DNA from: a virus
IMG/VR virus record: IMGVR_UViG_3300021478_000019
Span: 1 to 64,000 of that record
Length of the DNA: 64,000 nt
Strand: one strand, 5' to 3'
Shown here piece after piece: positions 27,957-59,453 of the stretch; position 1 is the stretch's first letter, and each line of letters begins with the position of its first letter. The notes under the pieces are model-generated. The model made no database searches, was not told the origin of the DNA, and worked only from the letters and a program-made list of their open reading frames with translations. Both the position numbers and the translations under genes were made by a program.

Positions 27957-29425
27957 GCCTGAGACATCTGGAGTTGTTCTTCGCCGGGGCCGAAACCCCG
28001 ACCTGGAGGAAGCTGCTCCTGGCCGAAAGCGTGCCCCATATAGCGGTCAACTACCTCCACCTCCAGGCCCGTACCGGCAGAAAGCCGTGGTTCTTAGCTG
28101 AGCATTTCTCCCCGGAGCAGCAGATCTTCGTGCTGTCGGGAGCGTCGGGCACTGACCGTAAGAAGTGGTCCCTGGCCCAGCATGAGGAGTTCCTCTCCGA
28201 CTACCTCCAGTTCGTGCAGGACAACCTGGAGCGGCTGAGCTTCTTCACCGAGTACGACCCCGAGATGCTCGGGCTGGACTGGGTGCTACGTCAACGCCAG
28301 GTCTGGGCCGGCCTGGCTGACGACAAGTTCGTGCCCGTCTGGCATGAGGTTTGGGGGGCCCCGCTACTTCGCACCATGGTCGAAACCTTCCCCAACCTGG
28401 GCGTGCCACCGGTCTCGCCGCGGACCCAGAACGTGCTGTCATCCTTGGTCCGACGCACCAAGTTGAACCTGCACGGGCTGTCCTTCAGCCATCCCTACGA
28501 CGAGCCCGGTGGCCTGTACTCGACCATAGTTTCGTCCAGTTGGATCTCCCCAACGAGATTCGGGGAGACCGTGGTGTGGGACCACGGGCGGCTACGTCGC
28601 TACTCCGCGGAGGACAAGGAGCAGGCTCGACGACGCCACCAGACCCAGTTCACCCAGGCGGGCTTCGACGCCGAGGCCATCTTGGCCGACGACAACAACG
28701 AGGTGTCCCGCTACACCATCTGGGCCTGGCGCCAGCTGGAGCAGGCCATGGCCGGGCCCGACCGTCGTCGAGTCATCCGCCGCCCCCAGGTAGCAACTAA
28801 CGGTCACGTCGACCATGAGCCGGATTCAGCCCCCGAGGTCGTAGCTCCAGTTGCTATCGACCCCCCCGTGTTGCAGGAAAATGGTCATCTGCTGCCCGAC
28901 GTGATCCGGCCACTACCGGTGTTCAACTACCGCACGGTAACAAGCACCGTGAACAGCCCCGATGGCCCCGGAACGGTCGAGGTGCAGTCCCAGGTCGCGG
29001 TTATGGGCCAGGCTGCCCTGCGCCAGTGCGATAGTTGCTCACTGGCTGTTGTTTGCCCGCTGTTCAGTTCCGGCTCATCCTGCCGCTACTCGATACCCGT
29101 CGAGATCCGCAACCGGGACCAGCTGCTGGGCATCCTGCACAGCCTGCTGGAGATGCAGGGCCAGCGCGTCGCCTTCGGCTTCTTCTCGGAGCAGCTGCAG
29201 GGGGGCTACCCTGATGCCAACTTGTCCTCGGAGTTGGACCGCATGATGCGGATGACCCAGGCGGTCAAGGACATTCAGGACAACAGGGACTTCCTAAAGG
29301 TGACGGTGGAAGGGCGAGCGCAGAGTGGAGTCCTACGGCGGCTCTTCGGGGCAGAACGGGCTGAGACCCTCCACCGAGTCGATCCCGACCGGGCGGAAGA
29401 TGCCGTCCGTCGCACCATGCAATAA
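27953..29425 (+). CDS. TGT-like (tRNA-guanine transglycosylase barrel-like) domain fused to a Cys4 and helical domain
   Basis: FVPVWH, LHGL, SSSW....RFG; CDSC....CP......C; function uncertain. Confidence 0.5.
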   Translation: MSLRHLELFFAGAETPTWRKLLLAESVPHIAVNYLHLQARTGRKPWFLAEHFSPEQQIFVLSGASGTDRKKWSLAQHEEFLSDYLQFVQDNLERLSFFTEYDPEMLGLDWVLRQRQVWAGLADDKFVPVWHEVWGAPLLRTMVETFPNLGVPPVSPRTQNVLSSLVRRTKLNLHGLSFSHPYDEPGGLYSTIVSSSWISPTRFGETVVWDHGRLRRYSAEDKEQARRRHQTQFTQAGFDAEAILADDNNEVSRYTIWAWRQLEQAMAGPDRRRVIRRPQVATNGHVDHEPDSAPEVVAPVAIDPPVLQENGHLLPDVIRPLPVFNYRTVTSTVNSPDGPGTVEVQSQVAVMGQAALRQCDSCSLAVVCPLFSSGSSCRYSIPVEIRNRDQLLGILHSLLEMQGQRVAFGFFSEQLQGGYPDANLSSELDRMMRMTQAVKDIQDNRDFLKVTVEGRAQSGVLRRLFGAERAETLHRVDPDRAEDAVRRTMQ

Positions 29426-36876: not shown

Positions 36877-38568
36877 CGGCCTGCTCCTTCTCTTCCTCTT
36901 CGATGGCGGCATGGGCCTGGGCGAGGTACTGAGCCTGCTCGTCTTCGGTGAGGGCCACGCTCTTGTAGCCTCTAGGGCCCAAATTCCCTCGTTTGTACTT
37001 CTCAATCTCGGTGGGCAGGACGGCGAAGGTTCGCACGGTCTCTCGACCGGAGCCGAAAATGCTCGCCTCGACTTGAACCACGATGAGGTTGTGGCGCTCA
37101 AACCACTCATCCTCAGCGAGCATGAACTGGACTTCTTTCCTGATGTACACGGAGACCTCAGGCACGGTCGGCCTCCTGGGCCTCCAGCCACACATCGTGG
37201 AACTTCCAGGGCTTCTCGACGGCGTAGGCGATGTCGCGGGCGTCATGCATGTTGTCGGCCATGTACCGGGTCAGGGTGACCATGTTGTCATGGCTCTGCC
37301 ACCAGAGGTCTGTGTCTGTTTCTTTGGTCTCATCCATTGCTGGTTGTGTTCTCCTTTGTTGGTAGTGGTTTACGGCCCTGCTCGGAGACAGGCATGGTGA
37401 AGAGTTCCTCGGTAATGAGGACGTCGGGGTTGGGCCCCCTCTTATCGAGGATCCGGCACACCACGTACTGACCCGGAGTGCTGGCCTGGCGATCCGTGAT
37501 GTTGCGAAAGTAGCGACCGGCGGGCACCTTGAACACGGCGTACTCGCCGTCGAGGTGCCACAGCACGATGGGCTTGGTTCCGTTACCCCAGTCCGCTGAG
37601 TGCTGCTCCCAGGAGCCAGCACCGCCCTGGTAGACAGCACCGGTCTCGCTACGGCTGTAGACGTACTTCCAGGTGTTAGGCATTGCTGCTGGTCTCCTTG
37701 GTTTTGTAGATGGTGATGGGCCCGGCCTTGAACCCGTGCCCTACGGCCTCCCAGGTCACCGGGCCCAGGTTCCAGCTGAGCAGTTCGGTGTTGGCGACCG
37801 ACTGGGCCCCCTCGGGGTCGTCGGCATGGGTGGCGTACAGAGCAACATGGTTGCTGTTGCCGTTGGACCGGGCGATGATCAGGGTCCAGTTGCGCTCGAT
37901 GCGGTTGGAGCTACCCGGCTTCTTGGGCGGCGCCAGCCCCAGGCGCACCTCGATGGCCCCAGCTGGGCGAGCCGTGTTCTGGCCCACCAGTTCGATGCCG
38001 TTGCCCTTGGTCTGGGCCCGCATATCCCACTTCACCGTGATCAGCCCTGCGGCCTCCAGCGCCTCCAGAGGCTTGCGAGCCCGGTCGTTGTAGTGCTTCT
38101 CGCCCGCGGCCCGGATTTCGGCCAGGTAGCGCTGCTGGGCTGCGGTCAGCTTCTTCATGACCGCAGATCCTCGGGCACCTGCGAGGGGTCGTAGATCGCT
38201 AGCCCCTGCAGGCACAGCTTGAAGCCACTGGCCCTGGCCTCGTCCAGTTCGGCGTTGATCAGGTTCGTGAGCCCGCCCTTGGCCCGGTGCAGCGCCGCCT
38301 CGGTGAGGTTGCCGACCATGGCCTGGTGGCGATCTCTGACGTCAGCGGGGTCGACGACGATGTTGTTCTTGCGGACGTCAGCGGCGCCCACCTTCTCCAT
38401 GGCCCAGCCCCAGTGGGCCGCGCCCACATGGGCCTTGTTGGCCAGTTCAAGGAGAGCCGGCTGGCCGTCCAGGGCTTCCTTCAGCTGGGCGAAGGCGCCC
38501 AGCATCTCGTTGGAGCCATTGTGCAGGTCTTCGTAGGGTTGCAGGTCGTTGTTGTCGGTTGATGTCAT
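36869..38568 (-). CDS. Five coupled hypothetical ORFs (starts 38568, ~38158, 37683, 37333, 37165)
   Basis: Overlaps; the first is leaderless from promoter 3. Confidence 0.6.
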
Positions 38569-43890: not shown

Positions 43891-44691
43891 GTGAACCGCA
43901 ATCCCGACCGCACGCCGGTCACCGTCGAGCAGTTGGTGGCCATGGCCCGCAGCTGCGGCATGACCGACCAGGAGTTGGCCACCCAACGCGGCATCAACGA
44001 GAAGGCTGCTTTCTGGCGGTCCTTCTTGGAGGGCGTCACCCAGCAGTTGCGCTTTGAAATGTGCATGCGCGGCGAGTTGATCTTGGACACCTCCGAGCCC
44101 TTCGTCCCCAAGCCTGCCCCCACCATCACCGTCGACCCCTTCTTCACCAACCAGAAAGTATGTATCTGACATGACAACGACCAACCCATTCATCAATCGC
44201 CCGACCTGGGAAGAGGTGATCGACCCTCTGGCCGATTCCCCTCTCTGGGTCCACATCCGCCAAGCTGCCAGCATTGTGCTGGAGCATCTGCTGCACAACA
44301 TGGGTGACTTCGACTCGGGGATCTCCTCCAGTGACATCAACCACACTGTGTTCGGGACGGCGTCCTGGCTGGACCGCTCCTCGCCCACCTACCCCGGCGA
44401 CGTCCTCACCGCGCTGGTGCATCAGGGCTACGAGTCCCGGCCATGAGCCAGGACGACGTCGAGCGCGACGCCAAGCGATGGGCCACTGGGCTGGAACTGG
44501 CCGAGGGGCTCAGCGCCCAGGCATGGGTTGACCTGGCGCCGCACCTGTCCTGCCGGGAGGCCGAGTTGGTCAAAGCCTTCCTGCTGGCCTGGAAGACGCC
44601 GTGGGTCGCTCAGGTCTTCATCGAGGCCCACGCCAACAGCGATGACGACGAGGGCGACCTGCACTACCAGGGAGGAGGTGCAGATTCCTGA
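43891..44691 (+). CDS. Three small hypothetical ORFs (43891-44169, 44171-44446, 44443-44691)
   Basis: Tight spacing; AGGAG before 43891. Confidence 0.6.
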
Positions 44692-44695
44692 CAGC

Positions 44696-44764
44696 GGTGA
44701 CTTGCATGTCACGGGCAGGGCCACTAGGGTCTTGCCCGTGACCCCAGTGGGACTCCGAGACTAG
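44696..44764 (+). promoter_or_regulatory. GACTTGCA promoter 9 followed by an 8-codon minigene
   Basis: GGTGAC-TTGCAT-N17-TAGGGT-N7-GTG ACC CCA GTG GGA CTC CGA GAC TAG. Confidence 0.65.
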
Positions 44765-44850: not shown

Positions 44851-45804
44851 ATGACATCCGACCAAGAGTACGAACTGGTGTACAAGGGCATCTGCGCCGT
44901 CGCCGCCCACTGTGACGGGGCCCAGTCCCTCGACTACGTGGGCTTCGACGGCCAGGACACCCACTTCGGGCGCCGCATCGCATCGGTGCCCTTTGATACC
45001 TGGACCCCCGCCGTGCGGGAAGAGGCGGCTCGCATCGCCAACAAGTATCAGGCCCAGATCCTGCGCTGGACGGGCATCGACGTCACCCTGCTCCAGGTGG
45101 TCAAGGATGCCAAGGGCATCGGCACCGTCCGGGCTGCCCGTGACGACGCCCGCACCTATGAACGCCGGGCCCGTGGGGCCAGCAAGGTGGCTGCCCGCAA
45201 GGTGGACGTGGAGGCGGGCCAGCTGCTCATCGCCTGGGTCAAGGGAGACCCGGACTTCTCGGCCCTCCTCGACGCCGCCAGGGCTCTGCCTGGTCGCCGG
45301 TTCAACGGCAATGGCTGGACCGCTCCGGTCTCCGATGAGGTGCGTGACATGATCCTGGTCTGGGACTTCCCGGTCACCCCGGCTGCCCAGGCTCTCCTCG
45401 ACGGGGCTGCCGAGTTGCCGGCAGCCCCCCAGGCGCCCAACATCACGCTCGACGACGCCCGCCATGTTGCCATCACCACCGGCTACGACGAGGCCATGCT
45501 GCAGCCCCTGCGGGCTCTGCCGGGTCGCCGTTGGGATGCCAGCCGCAAGGTCAACACGGCTGAGACCCACCCGGCGGTCATCCGCCTGGCCGCGAAGTTC
45601 AACCTGACCATGTCCCCCGAGGCTCGCCAGGCGTGCGAGACCGGGGCCACTGACCGCCAGGCTGCTGACCTGGCTGCCGGTGACGCCCAGGCCATCGTGG
45701 CCCACGTCAGCCGGGCCAAGGATCCCACCACCCTGCCGGATGCCTTTGAGGACATGCTGGCCCCCATCCTGGCCAGCTACGGGGCCGAGCGGGCACTGTC
45801 ATGA
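44851..45804 (+). CDS. Protein with CDGA...D..GF...D domain and two HARP-like repeats
   Basis: RALPGRRFN...W and RALPGRRWD repeats; QA..D N-terminal domain. Confidence 0.7.
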   Translation: MTSDQEYELVYKGICAVAAHCDGAQSLDYVGFDGQDTHFGRRIASVPFDTWTPAVREEAARIANKYQAQILRWTGIDVTLLQVVKDAKGIGTVRAARDDARTYERRARGASKVAARKVDVEAGQLLIAWVKGDPDFSALLDAARALPGRRFNGNGWTAPVSDEVRDMILVWDFPVTPAAQALLDGAAELPAAPQAPNITLDDARHVAITTGYDEAMLQPLRALPGRRWDASRKVNTAETHPAVIRLAAKFNLTMSPEARQACETGATDRQAADLAAGDAQAIVAHVSRAKDPTTLPDAFEDMLAPILASYGAERALS

Positions 45805-48890: not shown

Positions 48891-48919
48891 AGGAGCCCTC
48901 CCCAACCGGGAGGGCTCCT
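48891..48919 (+). terminator. Terminator-like hairpin
   Basis: 12-bp stem AGGAGCCCTCCC/GGGAGGGCTCCT. Confidence 0.75.
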
Positions 48920-48920
48920 C

Positions 48921-48978
48921 GCATTTCCAGGCTAGGGGTGACTTGCACCTGGGGAGCCCACGCCCTAGCATGCCTGCC
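48921..48978 (+). promoter_or_regulatory. GACTTGCA-type leaderless promoter 13
   Basis: First 28 bp identical to 48213-48240; TTGCAC-N17-TAGCAT-N7-ATG. Confidence 0.82.
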
Positions 48979-49841
48979 ATGACCAACCGCATTGTGACTG
49001 AACTGATCGACGCCCAGAACGAGGACAACGGCGGGCCCCTGGCCCCCGGCCAGGAGGGCTTCTGGAAGATCTGGGGAGCCGGGGCCCGCGACGTCCAGGC
49101 CGGGGACCTGGTCCTGGTCCGCTGGGCCGATGAGGACGGGGGCCATCACATCGAGGAGTACGCCATCGCCGCCCGCCTCGACGAGGGCAACGGCATCGCC
49201 CCCAAGTTCGCCGCCGAGTCGGGGGAGATCTTCCGCCTGGGCATGCTGCAGCGCATCGTCGTCCTGCGCTGGGGCACCGGCAACACGCTGAGCCCCAACT
49301 GCCGCTGATCACCGACCAACCCACCCGAGAGGATCCCACCATGACCACCACCTACTGCCCCTCCAGCCACGCCCACTACGTCTACGGGCCCACCGCCCGC
49401 AGCCTGGTCTGTGACGCCTGTGCGGCCACCTTCGTCGAGGAGCCGGGCACCGGTCCCGGCCACATCCCCCTGCACACGCCGGTGGAGGCCAACCCCACCG
49501 TGTTTGAGGCCAGCCCGGCCCCGACCTGCACCGTGCTGTTCTCCACCGGCCCCTGCGGCCAGCCCGCGGTGACCACCTTCACCACCGCCGCCGGGCGCAC
49601 CTACTACGAGTGCGCCGACCATGACGCCTCGCCCCGCCTGCTGGGCCGAGAGGGCACCACGGCCCGCCTGGGGGAGAAGGTCATCAAGACCAGGAGCCAG
49701 GCGCCCTACGCCCTGGTGAGCCGGTCCAGTGGTCGCCTGGTGGGCTATGCCCACAGCCAGTCCCCGGCAGTCCTCGACCGGGCCCGCCGCCTGGACGCCC
49801 AGGTGCTGCCTATCACTGATGGCAAGGTGGTGGTGCCCTGA
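48979..49841 (+). CDS. Two hypothetical ORFs (48979-49308, 49341-49841)
   Basis: Leaderless start; GAGGA ribosome-binding site for the second. Confidence 0.65.
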
Positions 49842-49867
49842 GCCCCTCACAACCGAGCAGCAGACCA

Positions 49868-49894
49868 GGAGCCGCCCACCAGGGCGGCTTCTTC
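49868..49894 (+). terminator. Intrinsic terminator
   Basis: GCCGCCC-ACCA-GGGCGGC followed by TTCTTC. Confidence 0.65.
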
Positions 49895-50846
49895 GCGTCC
49901 GGGCCCACAGCAGCCCTGAGAGGGGAAATCCCCTCGTCGAGCCCCTGCAAGCCTCAGCTGCCCCAGGATTGCACGTAGCAGCCAGAATGGGTGACGGGGC
50001 CAGAACAGGGGGTGCGGGGCACAGGGAGCCGTACAGGGGGCTCTCAGAGGATTGAGGGCAGAACAGCAGCTGGAAATGCCCGGATATCGGCCCCAACCGT
50101 GTGTGGCCAGGCATGAAATGTACCCATAATCAAGTGACCATTTCGCAGATTGCCCCCGCGGACCCCCATTTACCCCCGTTCCGACCCTCCCACGCCACCC
50201 CGTACCGCCCTCCTGAGCCCCTCCACCGGCCTCCTGTGCCATGCCCTGCCCGCACACGGGCCAGCCCCAGCCACCCCACATGCCAGGCCATCGCCGCTCA
50301 CAGGGTACGGCAGGGAGTAGGCGCCAGCTACCACATACCAAGGGCACATACCAGTCAGGTAGCAACTACCGCCCGAGCCCTACCCCCCCACCGCCTGGAC
50401 AGGGAGCCACCTGGCTCAGCAGCCCGTAGCAGGAAATCCAGGGCAGTACAAGTCGACCAGATAATCTTGGTTATCCGTACATAGGCTCTGACCAGGGGTT
50501 ATGTGAAAATGAAAACAGCTTCTTAGGCTCCGTTGGGAGAGAGTTGGGCATTTTCTCAGACTCCCAGCCACCCAGCCACCAGGCCGGTAGCAGACCCCCC
50601 ACCCTTAAGCAAGCCGCCAACGGTGGGCCCACCACCCCACAGGGGTTCGTGGGTGGGGAACGGCTGGGTAGTACCTCAAAAAATGAGCAAATCTAGTACC
50701 TCACGAAAGTGCTGGTCAACGAGGTGGGGGAGGAAAGAGCGTTGCTAAAACAGCAGGTCAGAGCAGGTATCGAGCTACCAGGAGGAGCAAATCAAGGGTC
50801 AGAACCAGCTACGATTTAGAGGTTTGAAGGCAGCAGAGGAGCAAGT
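49895..50846. other. About 1 kb non-coding region; candidate genome end, packaging site or origin
   Basis: No ORF with phage codon usage; strand-skewed tracts; short repeats. Confidence 0.55.
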
Positions 50847-52255
50847 GTGACAGACCAACCAGAAGAGCAGCAGCCTACGGTGGGAGCAGTGGTGGAGATC
50901 AGGGATAGGTCCCTAGCTGACCAGGCCAGCTGGTGGAGCGAGCAGATGGACGCCCTGGCTGCCGACCTGTATGAGGCCGATCCCCTGGCCTGCACCCAGG
51001 TAGCTGCTTGCTCCGTATTCCTGGGCCAGGTGGAGGCCAAGTTCAGGGAAACAGAGGACCAACTGCGGGCCATAGAGGCGTCGGTGGACCGCATGAAGGC
51101 GCTGGCGAGTAAGGCGTGAGCGATGATGCCAGAGACATGTGGCGGGCCTACAACCAGGACGGGAGCAAGCGGTGGCAGGAAGGTGGGGATCCGGTGAGCG
51201 AAGAGAAGAGTGAAGCCCCGGAGGGGTACCGGAACCTGCCCGGCTTCCTCTACATCAAGGCGTGCCTGCGCTGCGGCGCCCTGGTCACCGACACCGAGTT
51301 GCACACCGCCTGGCACGGGCGCCTGACCGGGCCCCCGGTGCGCCCATCGTGAGCGTCTACGAGCGCGGCTTCTGGGGCGACGTGTGGGACGAGACCTTCC
51401 ATGCCAACCACCCCGAGGGCGGCTGTGGCTTCTCCTGGCCTTTGCTCGACCCCAACGAGGAGGACCAGCGCAACATGATCGCCCACCAGTGTCGACGAGA
51501 GCCCGACCACCAGGGCCGGCATAAGTGCGCCTGCGGGGAGCAGGCGTGAGCGACACCTCCCATGGCTACGACTATCCCCCGCCCGTAGACGACGATCACG
51601 CTCTGCTGGTAGGGGCGCTGGTGGGCATGGTCATGCACGCCCGCCAGGAGGGGTTCGACTACACCGCTCGGGTTCTGGATGACGAGCATGGGAACCACCT
51701 GGCCACCTTTGAGGTCACGGCGCCCTCCGGGCGGTACCTGATCCATGTGGTGAAAGCGGTAGAAGATGGCTGACCTGGTCTCCTGGGACATGACCGACCC
51801 GCATAACCCCCAGCCCGTCATCTACCCCGTCTGCCCGGACTGTGGTGAGCCGTACTACTACAGCCAGTACCTCAGCCTGGCCGATGGCAAGTACCACTGG
51901 GCCTGGTCGAAGCCGGCCAAGGTGCCCAAGGGCTGCCGGCACAAGGGGGAGGCCCAGGTGCGCGACACCCGATGATGCTGGCCGTGTTGCTCTTGATCGT
52001 GTTGGCCGGCGGGCTGGTCCTGTACGCGGTGCGGAGATGAGGTGCGAGGCCGACCAGTGGGGCCGAATCACTGGCCAGGCATCCGGGCCGTGTCCCAACG
52101 AGGCCACCCACCTGGAACTGTGGTTCGACGAGGAGGGCGTCGAGGTCTGGCTGTGCGACCCCCATGGCGACCGCCCTATCGACTTAGCTCCCACCGTGGT
52201 GGCGCTCGATGAAGCTGACCACCCCGTTGGCGAACCACTTGAGCCCCCGGTGTAG
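50847..52255 (+). CDS. Run of about seven small hypothetical ORFs (50847, 51116, 51349, 51546, 51766, 52018 and others)
   Basis: GTGA overlaps; AGGAG before 50847. Confidence 0.55.
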
Positions 52256-52940: not shown

Positions 52941-52966
52941 AGAGGGCCCCCCGAAGGGGGCCCTCT
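52941..52966. terminator. Bidirectional terminator hairpin
   Basis: AGAGGGCCCCC-CGAA-GGGGGCCCTCT between convergent genes. Confidence 0.8.
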
Positions 52967-54932: not shown

Positions 54933-55709
54933 TTAGTTGATGGTGATATAGCTGCCCTGGCCGATATCCCCGACGCCTTCTTCTCGACCAGGGAACATCT
55001 TGCGCTGAAGGATCTTCAGGGTGCGGATGACCCGTTCGATGTCACGGTCAACGATCTTCAGCTGGGCCGGGATGGTGGCCGGCAGGTTGTCGAATTCGGC
55101 CACATAGGGGCCGACGATCCTGAGGAACGCCTCGATTTCCTTGTCCAACCGCTCCCAATACTGGTGCCGGCGCAGGGCATGCTCGCCGGCAGCCTTGCTG
55201 AGCTTGATGGCCTGCTTCTGGGCCTCCACGGCCCGACGTTCGTCCTCCTCCTCGTACATGCGGATGACGGCCAGGTTGCGGCGGGCGTTACGGCTGTCCT
55301 CCGCGGTGGCCTTGAGCCCTTCACGGACCTCGGGGTCGGATAGCTCCTCCCACAGGGCGTTGATCCGGGCTTCCAGCTTCTCTTGCCGGGTGGGCTGGGC
55401 GAAGGGCACGGGCTCGCCGGCTTCGGCGGCTTTCCGACCGGATTCGGTGATGTCCCAGACCATGTTGGCTTTGCCCGAGGCGCTCTGACGGCGCCCGGCC
55501 TGGACGACCAGGCCGGCTTTCCGTAGCTCGTTGCGCCGGGGGCGCAGCAAGTCGCCGGGGATACCGGTGGCTCGCTCTAGTTCGGCATCGAGGAGGGGCA
55601 CGTCAGCGATGGCCAGAATCTGAAGCACTCGGAGGCGCACCTCTGCCGCTGACCACGATGTGAAAGAGGAGGGGCCGGCGTCATCCGGCCCCTCCTTTTC
55701 TCCGATCAA
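54933..55709 (-). CDS. Winged-helix plus coiled-coil protein
   Basis: D.EL...TG.....RPRR.EL...GLV...G.R...SG....VW. Confidence 0.7.
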   Translation of the reverse strand: MIGEKEGPDDAGPSSFTSWSAAEVRLRVLQILAIADVPLLDAELERATGIPGDLLRPRRNELRKAGLVVQAGRRQSASGKANMVWDITESGRKAAEAGEPVPFAQPTRQEKLEARINALWEELSDPEVREGLKATAEDSRNARRNLAVIRMYEEEDERRAVEAQKQAIKLSKAAGEHALRRHQYWERLDKEIEAFLRIVGPYVAEFDNLPATIPAQLKIVDRDIERVIRTLKILQRKMFPGREEGVGDIGQGSYITIN

Positions 55710-56305: not shown

Positions 56306-56928
56306 CACTGCTCCTCTCTGTTGGAAGCTCGCCACAGGCGGGCTTGTGGTCTGCCCCGGAGGTAAATCAGATCACCACCGGTGATCTGGGTTTCCGAGGC
56401 ACCGCCATGTCTACCATCTCTTATCCCCAGGTGCAAGCGTTTTCTTCCACATGCATGCGCGTTCCCAAGCATGCCGAGACCGCATACTCCCTGGTACTGG
56501 GCGGTTCTTGCTGGTACTCGGTGGTACTGGTGATGCCTGTAGTTGTCCACAGGTTCCTCTGGAGTCCACTGATTACCGGTATTGACCGCCCGTGACCTCT
56601 GGCGTCAGGAAAACCGGACGCCAGCGACTTCCAGCGACCTGCGGCGGAACGAGAAGGCCCCCCGCGTCCGGGGGGCTCCTCCCTGGGATGGTGTCAGGGG
56701 CCGTCGCCTACCTGCCATGCCCTGCTGACGGATTCGCGGTGCCGTTGCCTCTGTGTGCCTCATTGGCTCTGCGCTGATGGCGGTGCGGGCCGTCACCGGT
56801 GACTATATCATCTTCGGTTCTCGGGGGTAACGGGCCCTGACCAGGGCATTTACAGAAAAGGGGCACTATCCGCTCATTGAGGGGCATGACTGCTCATATG
56901 GTGCCCCATTTTCTGGTACCGTGTGGGC

Positions 56929-58365
56929 ATGAAGTCGAGGGAACAACGCCAGGCCGAAAGCGCCTACGAACTGCTATTCGGTATCTACGCCAGACAGTCC
57001 CTGACCAGGGGCGAAACCGAATCTCTGCCCGACCAGGTGGAGCGGGGTCGCAGGGCGGTGGCGAGGGAGGGCACCGCGGTGGTGGAGTTCATCGAGCCCC
57101 CGTCCACATCCGGCTCCAAGCATCGTGGTCTGAAGCGCCAGGAGTTCCCCAAGCTCGTAGAGATGGTGAGATCGGGGGAGATAAATGCGGTCTGGGCCCT
57201 CACCACTGCTCGCATCAGCCGAGGCGGGGGGCCCGGCTGGGCTCCGCTCCTCCAGGCTGCCATCGACATGGGCCTGGACCTCAACCGCTTCGTGATGATC
57301 AGGGATAAGTTCTTGGATGAATCCGCGCTCAACCGTAAGGCTGACGCTGACCGGGAGTTCGCTGAGCAGATGAGCGAATACAGCATCGACAATAAGGAGC
57401 GTGAGGCTCGGGACGGCAAGCCCTCTCCTGGTGGTCTGCGCCCGTTCGGTCGCAACAAGGACGGCCTCACTGAGCATAGGACCGAGGGCCCCATGGTGCG
57501 ACAGATGGGTCGGGAGGCTCTAGGCGGGCGCAAGCCTTACAGCTTCGCTGAGGAACTGAACAGGAAGGGGATCAAAAATACCGGTGGTGGCAAGTTCACA
57601 CCGGAGTCGGTTCGTCGTATTCTCGTCTCGCCCCGCACCGCCGGGTATCGAGAGATCGGTAGCGATCTCATCCCAATAATCGGATGCGAACCGTTGATTG
57701 AGCGGGAAGCCTGGAAGAGATTACGGGACATGCTGGAGACCAACAAGGAGTGGGACACCAGGCCCCGCCATCCGAAGACCTTTGAGTTGCACGGCTTCGT
57801 CTTCTGCGCTCTCTGCGGAAAGGGGCTCCGGGGCCGCTACAAGAGCAACACCAGTGATGAAGATCGCCGCTACTGCTGTCCTTCGGTCGCGCAGGGCGGT
57901 TGCAACAAGATCTCGGCCAGTGCGGCCCAGCTAGAACGAGAGATGGAGCGGAAGGTCATGGGTCAGCTGGCCGACCCCGCGTTTCGTCGAGGGCTGCTGG
58001 CCGGCCAGGAGGATCAGCCGAGTTCGGAACTGGAGGCCCTGAGCAAGGAGAAGGCAGCCCTCCAGACACAGCGCCTCGGGTTCATGGACCTGGCAGGCGT
58101 GTTCACCAAGGACGAGATCGCGGCCAAGGTGCGCCCGGTAGACCAGGCCATCAAGAAGATCGATCACCAGATGGGCACACTGCTGAGCGCCCGACATCAG
58201 TTGGCGATCAGCGTGGACCTCGACAACCTCCCTACCTGGGCAGAGGCGACCTTCGACCAGAAGCGTGACCTGATGCGTCTGGTGGTGAATCGGGTCGAGG
58301 TCGGTAAGTCGAAGACGAAGGGTCGCGCCTGGGACGCTTCCCGGTTGACTTGGCATCTTCGCTGA
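56929..58365 (+). CDS. Large serine recombinase (integrase)
   Basis: YARQS...S...Q catalytic motif, R.SR, GG.RPFG recombinase domain, C..CG...Y.C...C Zn ribbon, coiled coil. Confidence 0.93.
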   Translation: MKSREQRQAESAYELLFGIYARQSLTRGETESLPDQVERGRRAVAREGTAVVEFIEPPSTSGSKHRGLKRQEFPKLVEMVRSGEINAVWALTTARISRGGGPGWAPLLQAAIDMGLDLNRFVMIRDKFLDESALNRKADADREFAEQMSEYSIDNKEREARDGKPSPGGLRPFGRNKDGLTEHRTEGPMVRQMGREALGGRKPYSFAEELNRKGIKNTGGGKFTPESVRRILVSPRTAGYREIGSDLIPIIGCEPLIEREAWKRLRDMLETNKEWDTRPRHPKTFELHGFVFCALCGKGLRGRYKSNTSDEDRRYCCPSVAQGGCNKISASAAQLEREMERKVMGQLADPAFRRGLLAGQEDQPSSELEALSKEKAALQTQRLGFMDLAGVFTKDEIAAKVRPVDQAIKKIDHQMGTLLSARHQLAISVDLDNLPTWAEATFDQKRDLMRLVVNRVEVGKSKTKGRAWDASRLTWHLR

Positions 58366-58501
58366 TCCTGCTCAGCATGATCTGGGCCAGGACTCGACCG
58401 GCCTCATAGGCAAGCTCGTCGGACCACTCTGTCCCTTGCCGGGCTCTGATAGCTCTGACCTCGGCGGTCATCTCGTCCAGTTCTTCCCGGCTGTAGGGCA
58501 T
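58232..58501 (-). CDS. Small convergent ORF; candidate recombination directionality factor
   Basis: Helical N-terminal half; overlaps the integrase 3' end; call rests on position only. Confidence 0.4.
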   Translation of the reverse strand: MPYSREELDEMTAEVRAIRARQGTEWSDELAYEAGRVLAQIMLSRISEDAKSTGKRPRRDPSSSTYRPRPDSPPDASGHASGRRSPLPR

Positions 58502-58568
58502 GGAGCCGACGGTACGAGCCGGCCTGGCGGCGCACCCCCTTGGCGCTGAAGTTCACCTAAATGGTCGT

Positions 58569-58608
58569 CCTGACTTGCACCCAACCTTCGGTGTGGTAGG
58601 GTTTTGTC
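58569..58608 (+). promoter_or_regulatory. GACTTGCA promoter 14, with no downstream start codon
   Basis: CCTGAC-TTGCAC-N16-TAGGGT with extended -10 TG. Confidence 0.7.
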
Positions 58609-58681
58609 ACCGGGGATTGGAACCCTTCGGTGGTTGGTTGGTTGTGTCATCGTGAAGAGCCCCCTTCGGGGGGCTCTTCTA
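58609..58681 (+). ncRNA. Candidate ~72-nt small RNA
   Basis: Promoter, 5' hairpin, unpaired GU-rich segment, terminator hairpin; no ORF. Confidence 0.55.
58654..58679. terminator. Intrinsic terminator with UUCG loop
   Basis: GAAGAGCCCCC-TTCG-GGGGGCTCTTC. Confidence 0.85.
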
Positions 58682-58757
58682 GTTGTGGAGCCCCCTCCCC
58701 AGGGCGGGCGGGGAGGGAAGCTCCGAAGAGGGACGTGGTTGTTGTGACTACGTGCCC

Positions 58758-59453
58758 TCAGCAGCCATCGTAGGGTCTCCATGGCTGAGCGCCGTCCTTG
58801 GCGTACAGCTGCTGGAACGCCGCGTCCTGCTCCGACCGGGAGGCCGTCCAGGCGCTCCCAGACCGGCCCAGGCTGGCCCAGGTGCTGTTCAGGATCCCGT
58901 AAATGTTGCTGGACCCAGCACCGTTTGTCGACTCCCTGAAGGCCACACAGGACTGGAAGGAGCCCGGCGCCCCATATGACCGGGGCGCCGAGTACGACCT
59001 GCTCACCACAGGCGCCCGGACGGGTGTATAAGTCCTGGTAGGAGCCGTGTAGTAGTGGTGAACGGGAGGTGTACTGGCGGGGGCCGTGGGTAGAACAACA
59101 GGGGCCGGCACATAGCTGACAGGTGGGAGGGTGATGACCTGGCCCACCAGGATCAAGTTCGGATTGGGAACGTGGTTGTAGGAGGCCAGTTGTTCCCAGG
59201 TCCGGGCTGGGCGGGCTCGGGTGCCGATCAGCCAGAGGGAGTCTCCCGATCGCACGGTGACCCTCGGCATCGGCGCCTGGACCCGCAGCGCCGTGAGGAC
59301 GGCTCTCGGGGGCGAACCACTGGCCTGGGCCACATCTCCTACCGCTGGAAGGTGGCTACCGGGGCCTACCGGCGCCGCTGCTGCTGTCGCTGCGGATGCT
59401 GCAAAGGGAAGTGCGCCCGCTAGGGCGCACATGAGTAGGAACTTCTTCCTCAT
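58758..59453 (-). CDS. Secreted LysM plus Rpf-like transglycosylase
   Basis: Signal peptide; VRSGDSLW.I...NPNLI.VGQ (LysM); CVAFRES...Y....STW...GSA..AS..EQ..A...LY...G.QPW...C (Rpf); AAGGAG site. Confidence 0.88.
   Translation of the reverse strand: MRKKFLLMCALAGALPFAASAATAAAAPVGPGSHLPAVGDVAQASGSPPRAVLTALRVQAPMPRVTVRSGDSLWLIGTRARPARTWEQLASYNHVPNPNLILVGQVITLPPVSYVPAPVVLPTAPASTPPVHHYYTAPTRTYTPVRAPVVSRSYSAPRSYGAPGSFQSCVAFRESTNGAGSSNIYGILNSTWASLGRSGSAWTASRSEQDAAFQQLYAKDGAQPWRPYDGC

Follow-up and report, generated by a model that had tools for sequence, protein, structure and literature searches.

We analysed the first 64 kb (hereafter the window) of a 117,510-bp record, IMG/VR IMGVR_UViG_3300021478_000019, from an uncultivated actinobacterial phage with 64% G+C, and concentrated on positions 58569–58681, which lie between the gene of a large serine integrase and the convergent gene of a secreted LysM/Rpf-like transglycosylase. 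The + strand of this stretch carries, in order, a copy of the phage's early leaderless-type promoter with no gene behind it, a weak hairpin, a G/U-rich segment (the seed) and a strong UUCG hairpin (T1), followed by a second hairpin (T2). The likeliest single reading of this arrangement, which we put forward tentatively, is that it encodes a lineage-specific small RNA (sRNA) that could plausibly act as a trans-antisense RNA. The positions given in a first-pass annotation of the window for the −35 and −10 elements, the start nucleotide, the seed and the hairpin arms are all correct in the sequence.

The promoter belongs to a family built on the extended −35 element GACTTGCA. Fifteen exact copies of this motif occur in the window, compared to 1.9 expected, and none of 100 shuffled sequences reached this number; the remaining 53 kb of the record contain no exact copy. 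Twelve of the fifteen are followed after 17–19 nucleotides (nt) by a TAnnnT hexamer and, 6–7 nt later, by ATG or GTG, and so qualify as leaderless promoters. A further two members, with one mismatch each, lie on the − strand at 22093 and 63213. The exact copies at 20217 (+ strand) and 46860 (− strand) are intragenic, have no −10 element and were rejected as promoters.

The orphan copy occupies 58572–58579 on the + strand and matches the motif exactly; the CCT that precedes it is common to six other copies. Its −10 hexamer, TAGGGT (58597–58602), lies 17 nt past the −35 element and has the TAnnnT form seen in all 14 members. When both strands of the genome (235 kb) were scanned with a promoter matrix trained on the 14 family members, this site, at 25.1 bits, was the top non-training match. 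The runner-up, at 17.8 bits, is located at 55604 on the − strand within a gene (54933–55709), and may be an internal promoter or a chance match. The −10 block of the orphan copy (7.0 bits) is inside the range of the members, and its −35 block scores 18.1 bits versus 21.0–32.7 bits in leave-one-out tests of the 12 core members. By an arithmetic estimate, GACTTGCA with a correctly spaced TAnnnT is expected by chance about 0.08 times per genome. As judged from this match, we conclude that the orphan promoter is a genuine, though divergent, member of the family. The ATG of the members is found 6–7 nt past the −10 element, and by analogy transcription is predicted to start at A58609 on the + strand, six bases past TAGGGT. 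No ATG or GTG is present 6–7 nt past the −10 element of the orphan copy, and the + strand open reading frames (ORFs) downstream score as non-coding. The first-pass annotation had called it the only family promoter without a start codon. This is true as worded, but the promoter at 44699 also lacks a real leaderless gene: the GTG at its +1 opens eight codons only, and the next family promoter (44814) follows 115 nt downstream. The gene at 44851 appears to have these two as tandem promoters, one of which would give a leadered mRNA.

The predicted RNA starts with the hairpin proposed at first pass (58609–58631, + strand), which can form but is weak (−6.6 kcal/mol) and shares the ensemble with alternative folds instead of dominating it. 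The seed, GGTTGGTTGGTTGTGTCAT (58632–58650, + strand), had been described as unpaired and is mostly so, with a mean pair probability of 0.29. It ends in GUCAU, and the complementary sequence, A/C-rich, has the form of a leaderless start of the family (ATGACA...). T1 (58654–58679, + strand) starts 45 bases downstream of A58609; its arms, 58654–58664 and 58669–58679, form 11 base pairs with 100% complementarity around a TTCG loop, with a computed energy of −24.0 kcal/mol. The loop reads cUUCGg on the + strand, and a similar hairpin at 52941–52966 has UUCG on the strand that carries the genes flanking it. Based on this orientation and precedent, T1 most likely acts as a + strand stop for both the integrase mRNA and the short transcript. 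T2 (58686–58725) is stronger still at −27.0 kcal/mol; it is the − strand terminator of the Rpf-LysM gene, aligns with the corresponding hairpin of related phages and, like T1, has no U-tract. A scan for tRNA and tmRNA genes found none in the stretch. Two further features of the sequence are recorded here. Four GG runs spaced by 1–2 T at 58630–58643 have the layout of a two-tetrad G-quadruplex, which we take to resemble that of two-tetrad aptamers and which could form in the RNA or in the non-template DNA. The string CCTTCGG(T/G)G recurs every 38–39 nt within 58585–58672, and its three copies fall in the spacer of the promoter, the region of the 5′ hairpin and the loop of T1.

The stretch could instead be read on its − strand, where the first-pass annotation had noted, as a caveat, a possible 60-codon protein (58650 to 58468, MTQPTN...) with a leaderless-like start. 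The frame is open over all 60 codons, its start reaches 16.2 bits as a family start, and MTQPTN resembles the MSQPLPT, MTTKTNP and MTTAKQPT of family members. However, open frames of this length are common at 64% G+C, the G+C content at third codon positions (GC3) is 0.52 compared to ~0.8 in real genes, and the codon score of −0.366 is below those of all 61 small called genes (0.29 ± 0.13, minimum −0.036), a control set from a crude GC3-based caller whose starts are possibly wrong and which missed the Rpf gene. In addition, the ATG lies 4 nt past T1, the upstream sequence contains no TAnnnT, GACTTGCA or ribosome-binding site, the frame overlaps both the + strand promoter and the start of a small ORF at 58501, and searches against Pfam and PHROG returned nothing for it. 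We thus regard a protein at this position as highly improbable. With the + strand ORFs at the locus scoring −0.41 and −0.26, the stretch is non-coding on both strands by codon usage. Since no coding gene lies opposite, the locus is not a cis-antisense RNA of the sar/OOP type; this possibility was considered and fails, as the sole opposite ORF is the frame just described.

To measure how closely the seed resembles gene starts, an ungapped position matrix was built from the 13 leaderless starts (19 nt each). The reverse complement of the seed scores 16.2 bits, which would place it third among the leave-one-out scores of the members themselves (−11.8 to 17.3), and only six non-training ATG 19-mers in the 235 kb reach this value. 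The chance of finding such a start module within a 100-nt stretch is ~0.4% (arithmetic estimate). A blastn-short comparison of 58540–58700 with the phage's own genome gave no extended paralogy to any gene start. The computed seed duplexes have energies of −26.8 kcal/mol at 21405, −24.3 at 44171, −22.5 at 38568, −22.4 at 22053, −20.9 at 50847 and −18.2 at 44851. The last five of these are among the complementary starts listed in the first-pass annotation and do pair; the sixth on that list, 42846, pairs poorly (−13.9 kcal/mol). Directly upstream of the GTG start at 50847 is a gap of ~1 kb (49841–50847) without a called gene.

Across the 13 leaderless 5′ ends, the seed alone gives a mean of −18.49 kcal/mol. 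Mononucleotide shuffles of the seed average −12.46 ± 1.42 kcal/mol, with none of 1000 matching the observed mean, and shuffles that keep GUCAU average −15.68 ± 1.31 kcal/mol, with a fraction of 0.019 matching it. Pairing of the seed with 171 other gene starts (−12.56 kcal/mol, p = 3e-6) and with 458 intragenic windows (−12.6 kcal/mol) is also weaker. The seed even outpairs the true antisense of each of the 13 starts when that antisense is tested against the other 12 (−7.3 to −15.6 kcal/mol). The contrast is retained for a whole RNA of 76 nt with opening costs included, which gives −19.97 kcal/mol for the leaderless regulon versus −9.45 ± 4.45 kcal/mol for 170 other starts (p = 2.5e-8); four of 300 GUCAU-keeping shuffles of the seed reach the observed mean. 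In the predicted complexes, T1 remains folded in 13 of 13 cases and the CAU of the RNA pairs with the 5′-terminal AUG in 11, the exceptions being 42846 and 43752. Six of the 13 starts reach −20 kcal/mol, compared to 1.5% of 1104 random intragenic 40-mers. The enrichment that the first-pass annotation had suggested looking for is thus found over both shuffled seeds and other starts. Searches against Pfam and PHROG gave nothing for nine of ten target proteins tested, and the tenth (21685–22053) matches a PHROG of unknown function.

Several observations weigh against a trans-acting antisense RNA. On the side of the targets, three of the 13 starts do no better than −16 kcal/mol with the whole RNA (42846, −13.1; 46658, −14.3; 63175, −15.6), so that the earlier claim that one sRNA silences much of the regulon is overstated, although a subset is predicted to pair. 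Random intragenic 40-mers match −20 kcal/mol at the rate of ~1.5% given above, and an unbiased scan of the genome finds 672 loci at or below −17.5 kcal/mol, mostly G+C-rich and intragenic, with only about four gene starts among the top 30. A scan for rival seeds took in the G/T-rich part of the genome and a random sample of 3000 windows below 16 G+T; of the 901 G/T-rich windows, 28 equal or exceed the seed in pairing with the 13 starts. The RNA of one promoter copy would, moreover, have to titrate the mRNAs of 13 or more like promoters. On the side of the RNA itself, the orphan promoter scores below all 12 core members (29.5–41.7 bits, leave-one-out), since the CTAG(S)3T and A/T-rich element found upstream in these is missing. 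The UUCG terminator annotated at first pass holds up as a strong hairpin, but its tail, UAGUUGUGG, has no U-tract, and a terminator scan did not report the site; other intergenic hairpins of the phage are likewise without a U-tract, and U-tract terminators do exist elsewhere in it (e.g. 65207–65234). The fold of the + strand is ordinary (z = −1.82; 10 of 200 shuffles fold equally well), whereas that of the − strand is exceptional (z = −5.72). No Rfam family was reached, the best scores being 22.1 for isrB (threshold 35) and 21.7 for rsmX (threshold 56). Finally, nothing equivalent to the unit is found in related phages, as detailed below.

Some of these points would also fit a promoter-like site that is silent or too weak, with low-complexity (GGTT)n DNA resembling an inverted start by coincidence. 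The upstream elements are missing, the sequence (GGTT)3 amounts to a simple repeat, a G/U-rich RNA pairs promiscuously, and the feature was chosen post hoc. We nevertheless consider this explanation unlikely. The site combines the exact 8-mer with the shared CCT, the right spacing and a TAnnnT hexamer in one of the few non-coding gaps of the phage, it leads the next non-training match by 7 bits, and composition- and GUCAU-keeping shuffles reach the observed pairing in just 1.3–1.9% of trials.

Comparison with other phages indicates that the unit is restricted to this lineage. A blastn search of 58300–58800 against 50,697 phage records gave no match, and a search for the integrase in viral contigs and genome contigs found no relative. 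A 22-nt stretch containing the seed has no match in the viral contigs; the 19-nt seed has one in the genome contigs, in a Flavobacteriia genome, where ~4 are expected (arithmetic estimate), and we take it as chance, as we do the 55 single-copy matches of a 14-nt promoter string in viral contigs, none of which contains multiple copies. Related loci were found through the neighbouring ParB-like gene (54–66% identity), 20 in metagenomes and nine in IMG/VR. They keep the gene order Rpf, orf147, ParB-like, g363, Ubl-like, g206, and none of the 29 contains the promoter motif, the seed, T1 or the integrase. In an alignment with nine relatives, T2 and the 13-nt element that follows it prove to be conserved as the 3′ end of the convergent Rpf-LysM gene; nothing in the relatives corresponds to T1, the seed or the promoter. 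The 13-nt element (58741–58753, unstranded) lies between the Rpf stop codon and T2. Its first seven columns are invariant in 10 of 10 sequences and the next six are at least 90% conserved, even though the aligned sequences share just ~50% identity overall. The region equivalent to 58741–58775 was compared in L059–L077 and G004, and in most relatives a short CTACGTG...CACGTAG palindrome follows the element there.

Two relatives allow the promoter system to be compared. One, found through the helicase (G001, 60% identity), has no copy of the motif and no integrase. In the other (G004, 98% complete), a different gene begins directly past the Rpf terminator, and the leaderless genes have another upstream motif (CTGCTCRC/CACATG type) and start with ATGGCA..., three of them with ATGGCACATGAC (MAHD). 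Its own start module has no inverted copy in its genome, with no non-training match of at least 15 bits, which is a further point against the proposed sRNA. The leaderless layout is kept between G004 (L095/L096) 46667–77247 and 21405–48979 of the window, and within each phage the early genes are homogenised in their first codons, as ATGGCACATGAC in G004 and as ATGACA... here. Such codons suggest that a recognition factor is specific to each phage or that the 5′ module is under selection. The integration module of our phage (an attP-like repeat, the integrase, the small ORF and the RNA unit; 56340–58760) replaces unrelated genes that the relatives carry at the syntenic position (G004 84000–86880), and no integrase homologue was found in the five larger related IMG/VR records searched. 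Since the integrase and the RNA unit are absent from the relatives, both are, on this comparison, lineage-specific, and temperate capacity may be a recent gain.

This distribution is compatible with a real promoter and a short transcript that has no role in trans, either as a by-product of shuffling promoter, terminator and start-module cassettes, or as the output of an insulated orphan promoter, halted at T1 and T2 short of entering the Rpf gene in antisense. Terminator–promoter junctions are indeed repeated in the phage (for instance, a hairpin at 48891–48919 followed by a promoter at 48940), and 44699 is another family promoter without a gene of its own. T1 would be needed anyway as the first hairpin past the integrase, T2 is the conserved Rpf terminator, the unit is absent in relatives, and the thermodynamic specificity of the pairing is low. 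We rate this explanation as rather unlikely. A neutral relic should decay evenly, yet the start module is preserved at 16.2 bits while the rest of the ORF scores −0.366. The module is also inverted and unpaired, and it sits precisely within the 45 transcribed nucleotides that separate the intact promoter from the hairpin; the ~0.4% chance estimate for a module of this quality in 100 nt speaks against accident. The conjunction of promoter, inverted near-consensus start module in an unpaired 45-nt gap, and + strand-type hairpin is unlikely to be due to chance and would be hard to explain as a decayed gene.

The surroundings of the locus are as follows. The integrase (56923–58365, + strand) has Pfam domains PF00239, PF07508 and PF13408 recorded for an identical protein. 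It is 22–25% identical to phage serine integrases, and its best homologue other than the identical protein has 34% identity, which is too remote for comparing intergenic DNA. An imperfect inverted repeat directly upstream of it (56853–56915, unstranded; inverted repeats I8 and I18) is a candidate phage attachment site (attP); with this repeat upstream of the integrase, an attP within the RNA region was rejected. The small ORF (58232–58501, − strand, 89 amino acids) diverges from the orphan promoter and overlaps the 3′ end of the integrase gene by 134 nt. Its coding-like signal is limited to the 45 codons outside the overlap, and Pfam and PHROG searches found nothing for it. On the other side, the gene of the secreted LysM/Rpf-like transglycosylase (58758–59453, − strand) has its own AAGGAG ribosome-binding site, and its product matches LysM (3.5e-9) and, below the cut-off, Transglycosylas (1e-4). 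A ParB-like gene is located 1.3 kb from the RNA locus.

In this setting, the locus could act at the level of DNA or in cis, by read-through antisense to the Rpf-LysM gene, by a promoter that titrates an early regulator or polymerase, or by a G-rich RNA that primes replication. T1 and T2 have no U-tracts, which makes read-through into the convergent gene plausible, the promoter stands back to back with the small ORF at 58501, and the ParB-like gene is close by; cluster A mycobacteriophages have non-coding RNAs for prophage replication beside a partition/integration cassette, as they are presented in PMC7157519. According to the same account, however, the RNA origins of those phages replace the integration cassette, whereas the phage described here has an integrase. 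Two consecutive strong hairpins (−24 and −27 kcal/mol) favour a stop over read-through, and the inverted start module in the transcribed gap would be left without explanation. Action of this kind is, in our view, decidedly unlikely.

Elsewhere in the genome, a tail sheath is encoded at 153–1739, and among named phages the nearest are large myophages of Streptomyces, BRock for example, with a sheath identity of only ~38%. Also encoded are an ArdC-like anti-restriction protein, a SNF2-type helicase and a DpdA-like transglycosylase. The latter, a queuine tRNA-ribosyltransferase homologue at 27884–29425 (PHROG 887, 1.5e-40), suggests that the phage DNA carries a 7-deazaguanine modification. A second sRNA-like unit is present 1.2 kb past the window, at about 65200–65262 of the record on the − strand. 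It consists of TTGCTT-N17-TATAGT and, after ~30 nt, a 10-bp hairpin (65207–65234) followed by a run of seven U, with no fitting ORF; its promoter is of a type unlike that at 58572, and its U-tract terminator is canonical. A search of sequencing runs found no RNA run that contains the 58569–58681 stretch. One freshwater DNA run has 0.08 of the sequence words; it covers only two identical 151-nt contigs within the integrase gene besides short unlike pieces, with no more than a trace over 58539–58700, and is uninformative on expression or variation.

Returning to the sRNA, which we still prefer as a single reading, the following course of events can be envisaged. The extra copy of the early leaderless-type promoter would fire at about A58609, and transcription would end 45–70 nt later at the cUUCGg hairpin T1, with T2 as a second stop. 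The product would be a non-coding RNA of ~72 nt, or of ~117 nt if extended to T2, whose unpaired G/U-rich centre ending in GUCAU mirrors the typical leaderless start of the phage. The seed could then pair with the extreme 5′ end, AUG included, of some of the early mRNAs, with 21405, 22053, 38568, 42985, 48271, the operon-internal 44171 and 98027 as the best candidates. Such pairing would hide the 5′-terminal AUG that 70S ribosomes need, or trigger cleavage of the duplex. As T1 is the first + strand hairpin past the integrase, the RNA sequence is probably also part of the 3′ untranslated region (UTR) of the integrase mRNA, which would tie expression of the integrase to damping of the early genes. 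The full proposal, in which one sRNA masks the 5′-terminal AUGs across the leaderless early family by means of an inverted start module behind a spare promoter, and in which a terminator shared with the integrase couples integration to early shut-off, is possible but doubtful. The lysis/lysogeny switch suggested at first pass is purely inferred.

The proposed RNA can be compared with several known systems. Trans-encoded sRNAs with multiple targets exist, and type I 3′-UTR sRNAs have their own promoter and use the terminator of the upstream gene. The candidate resembles these in its own promoter, its single-stranded seed between hairpins, its strong 3′ hairpin, probably shared with the integrase mRNA, and its several imperfectly complementary predicted targets. 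It differs from them in the missing U-tract, the 19-nt G/U-rich seed, the predicted nature of its targets and the lack of conservation of the locus. To our knowledge, Actinobacteria lack Hfq. What likeness there is to isrB and rsmX comes from the GC-rich UUCG hairpin at the end, and the locus belongs to neither family.

Among phages, the antisense RNAs sar of P22, and OOP and aQ of lambda, are described as cis-encoded and as setting the balance between lysis and lysogeny (PMC12197685). Going by that description, they share with our candidate a short promoter-to-terminator RNA in a temperate phage and a start-proximal block of translation, proposed in our case. They lie opposite a single target with perfect complementarity, whereas here there is no gene opposite, the pairing is imperfect, and the candidate targets are a gene family 10–37 kb away. 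Moreover, these targets are leaderless, so that a 5′-terminal AUG would be masked instead of a Shine-Dalgarno site. The mycobacteriophages L5, D29 and StarStuff produce abundant non-coding RNAs from the early promoter Pleft in a region of ~500 bp at the genome end, as documented by RNA-seq and Northern blot, and no function is known for them in that report (PMC5712189). By this account, they are likewise non-coding transcripts of actinobacteriophages from an early-type promoter (a predicted transcript in our case), and compared by description they have no reported antisense seed to gene starts. In a 2022 review (PMC9031893), control of leaderless translation by sRNAs is listed as “Unknown”, though expected, and searches of an open-access library found no account of an sRNA masking the 5′ ends of leaderless mRNAs.

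Post-transcriptional regulation of leaderless mRNAs, which are common in Actinobacteria including mycobacteria and Streptomyces, is an open question, and the locus, if read correctly, would give the first example of leaderless translation controlled by an sRNA. Its design is compact, a 72-nt RNA with about six strong predicted 5′ ends and three weak ones that provide built-in negative controls. Even if this reading is wrong, what remains on record is a family of promoters whose −35 motif is lineage-specific and whose genes have homogenised 5′ coding ends. If it is right, copying a promoter and inverting a start module would be a simple evolutionary route to a multi-target sRNA, and an RNA layer would be added to the control of lysogeny in a large contractile-tailed actinophage, a group whose temperate members have been little studied.

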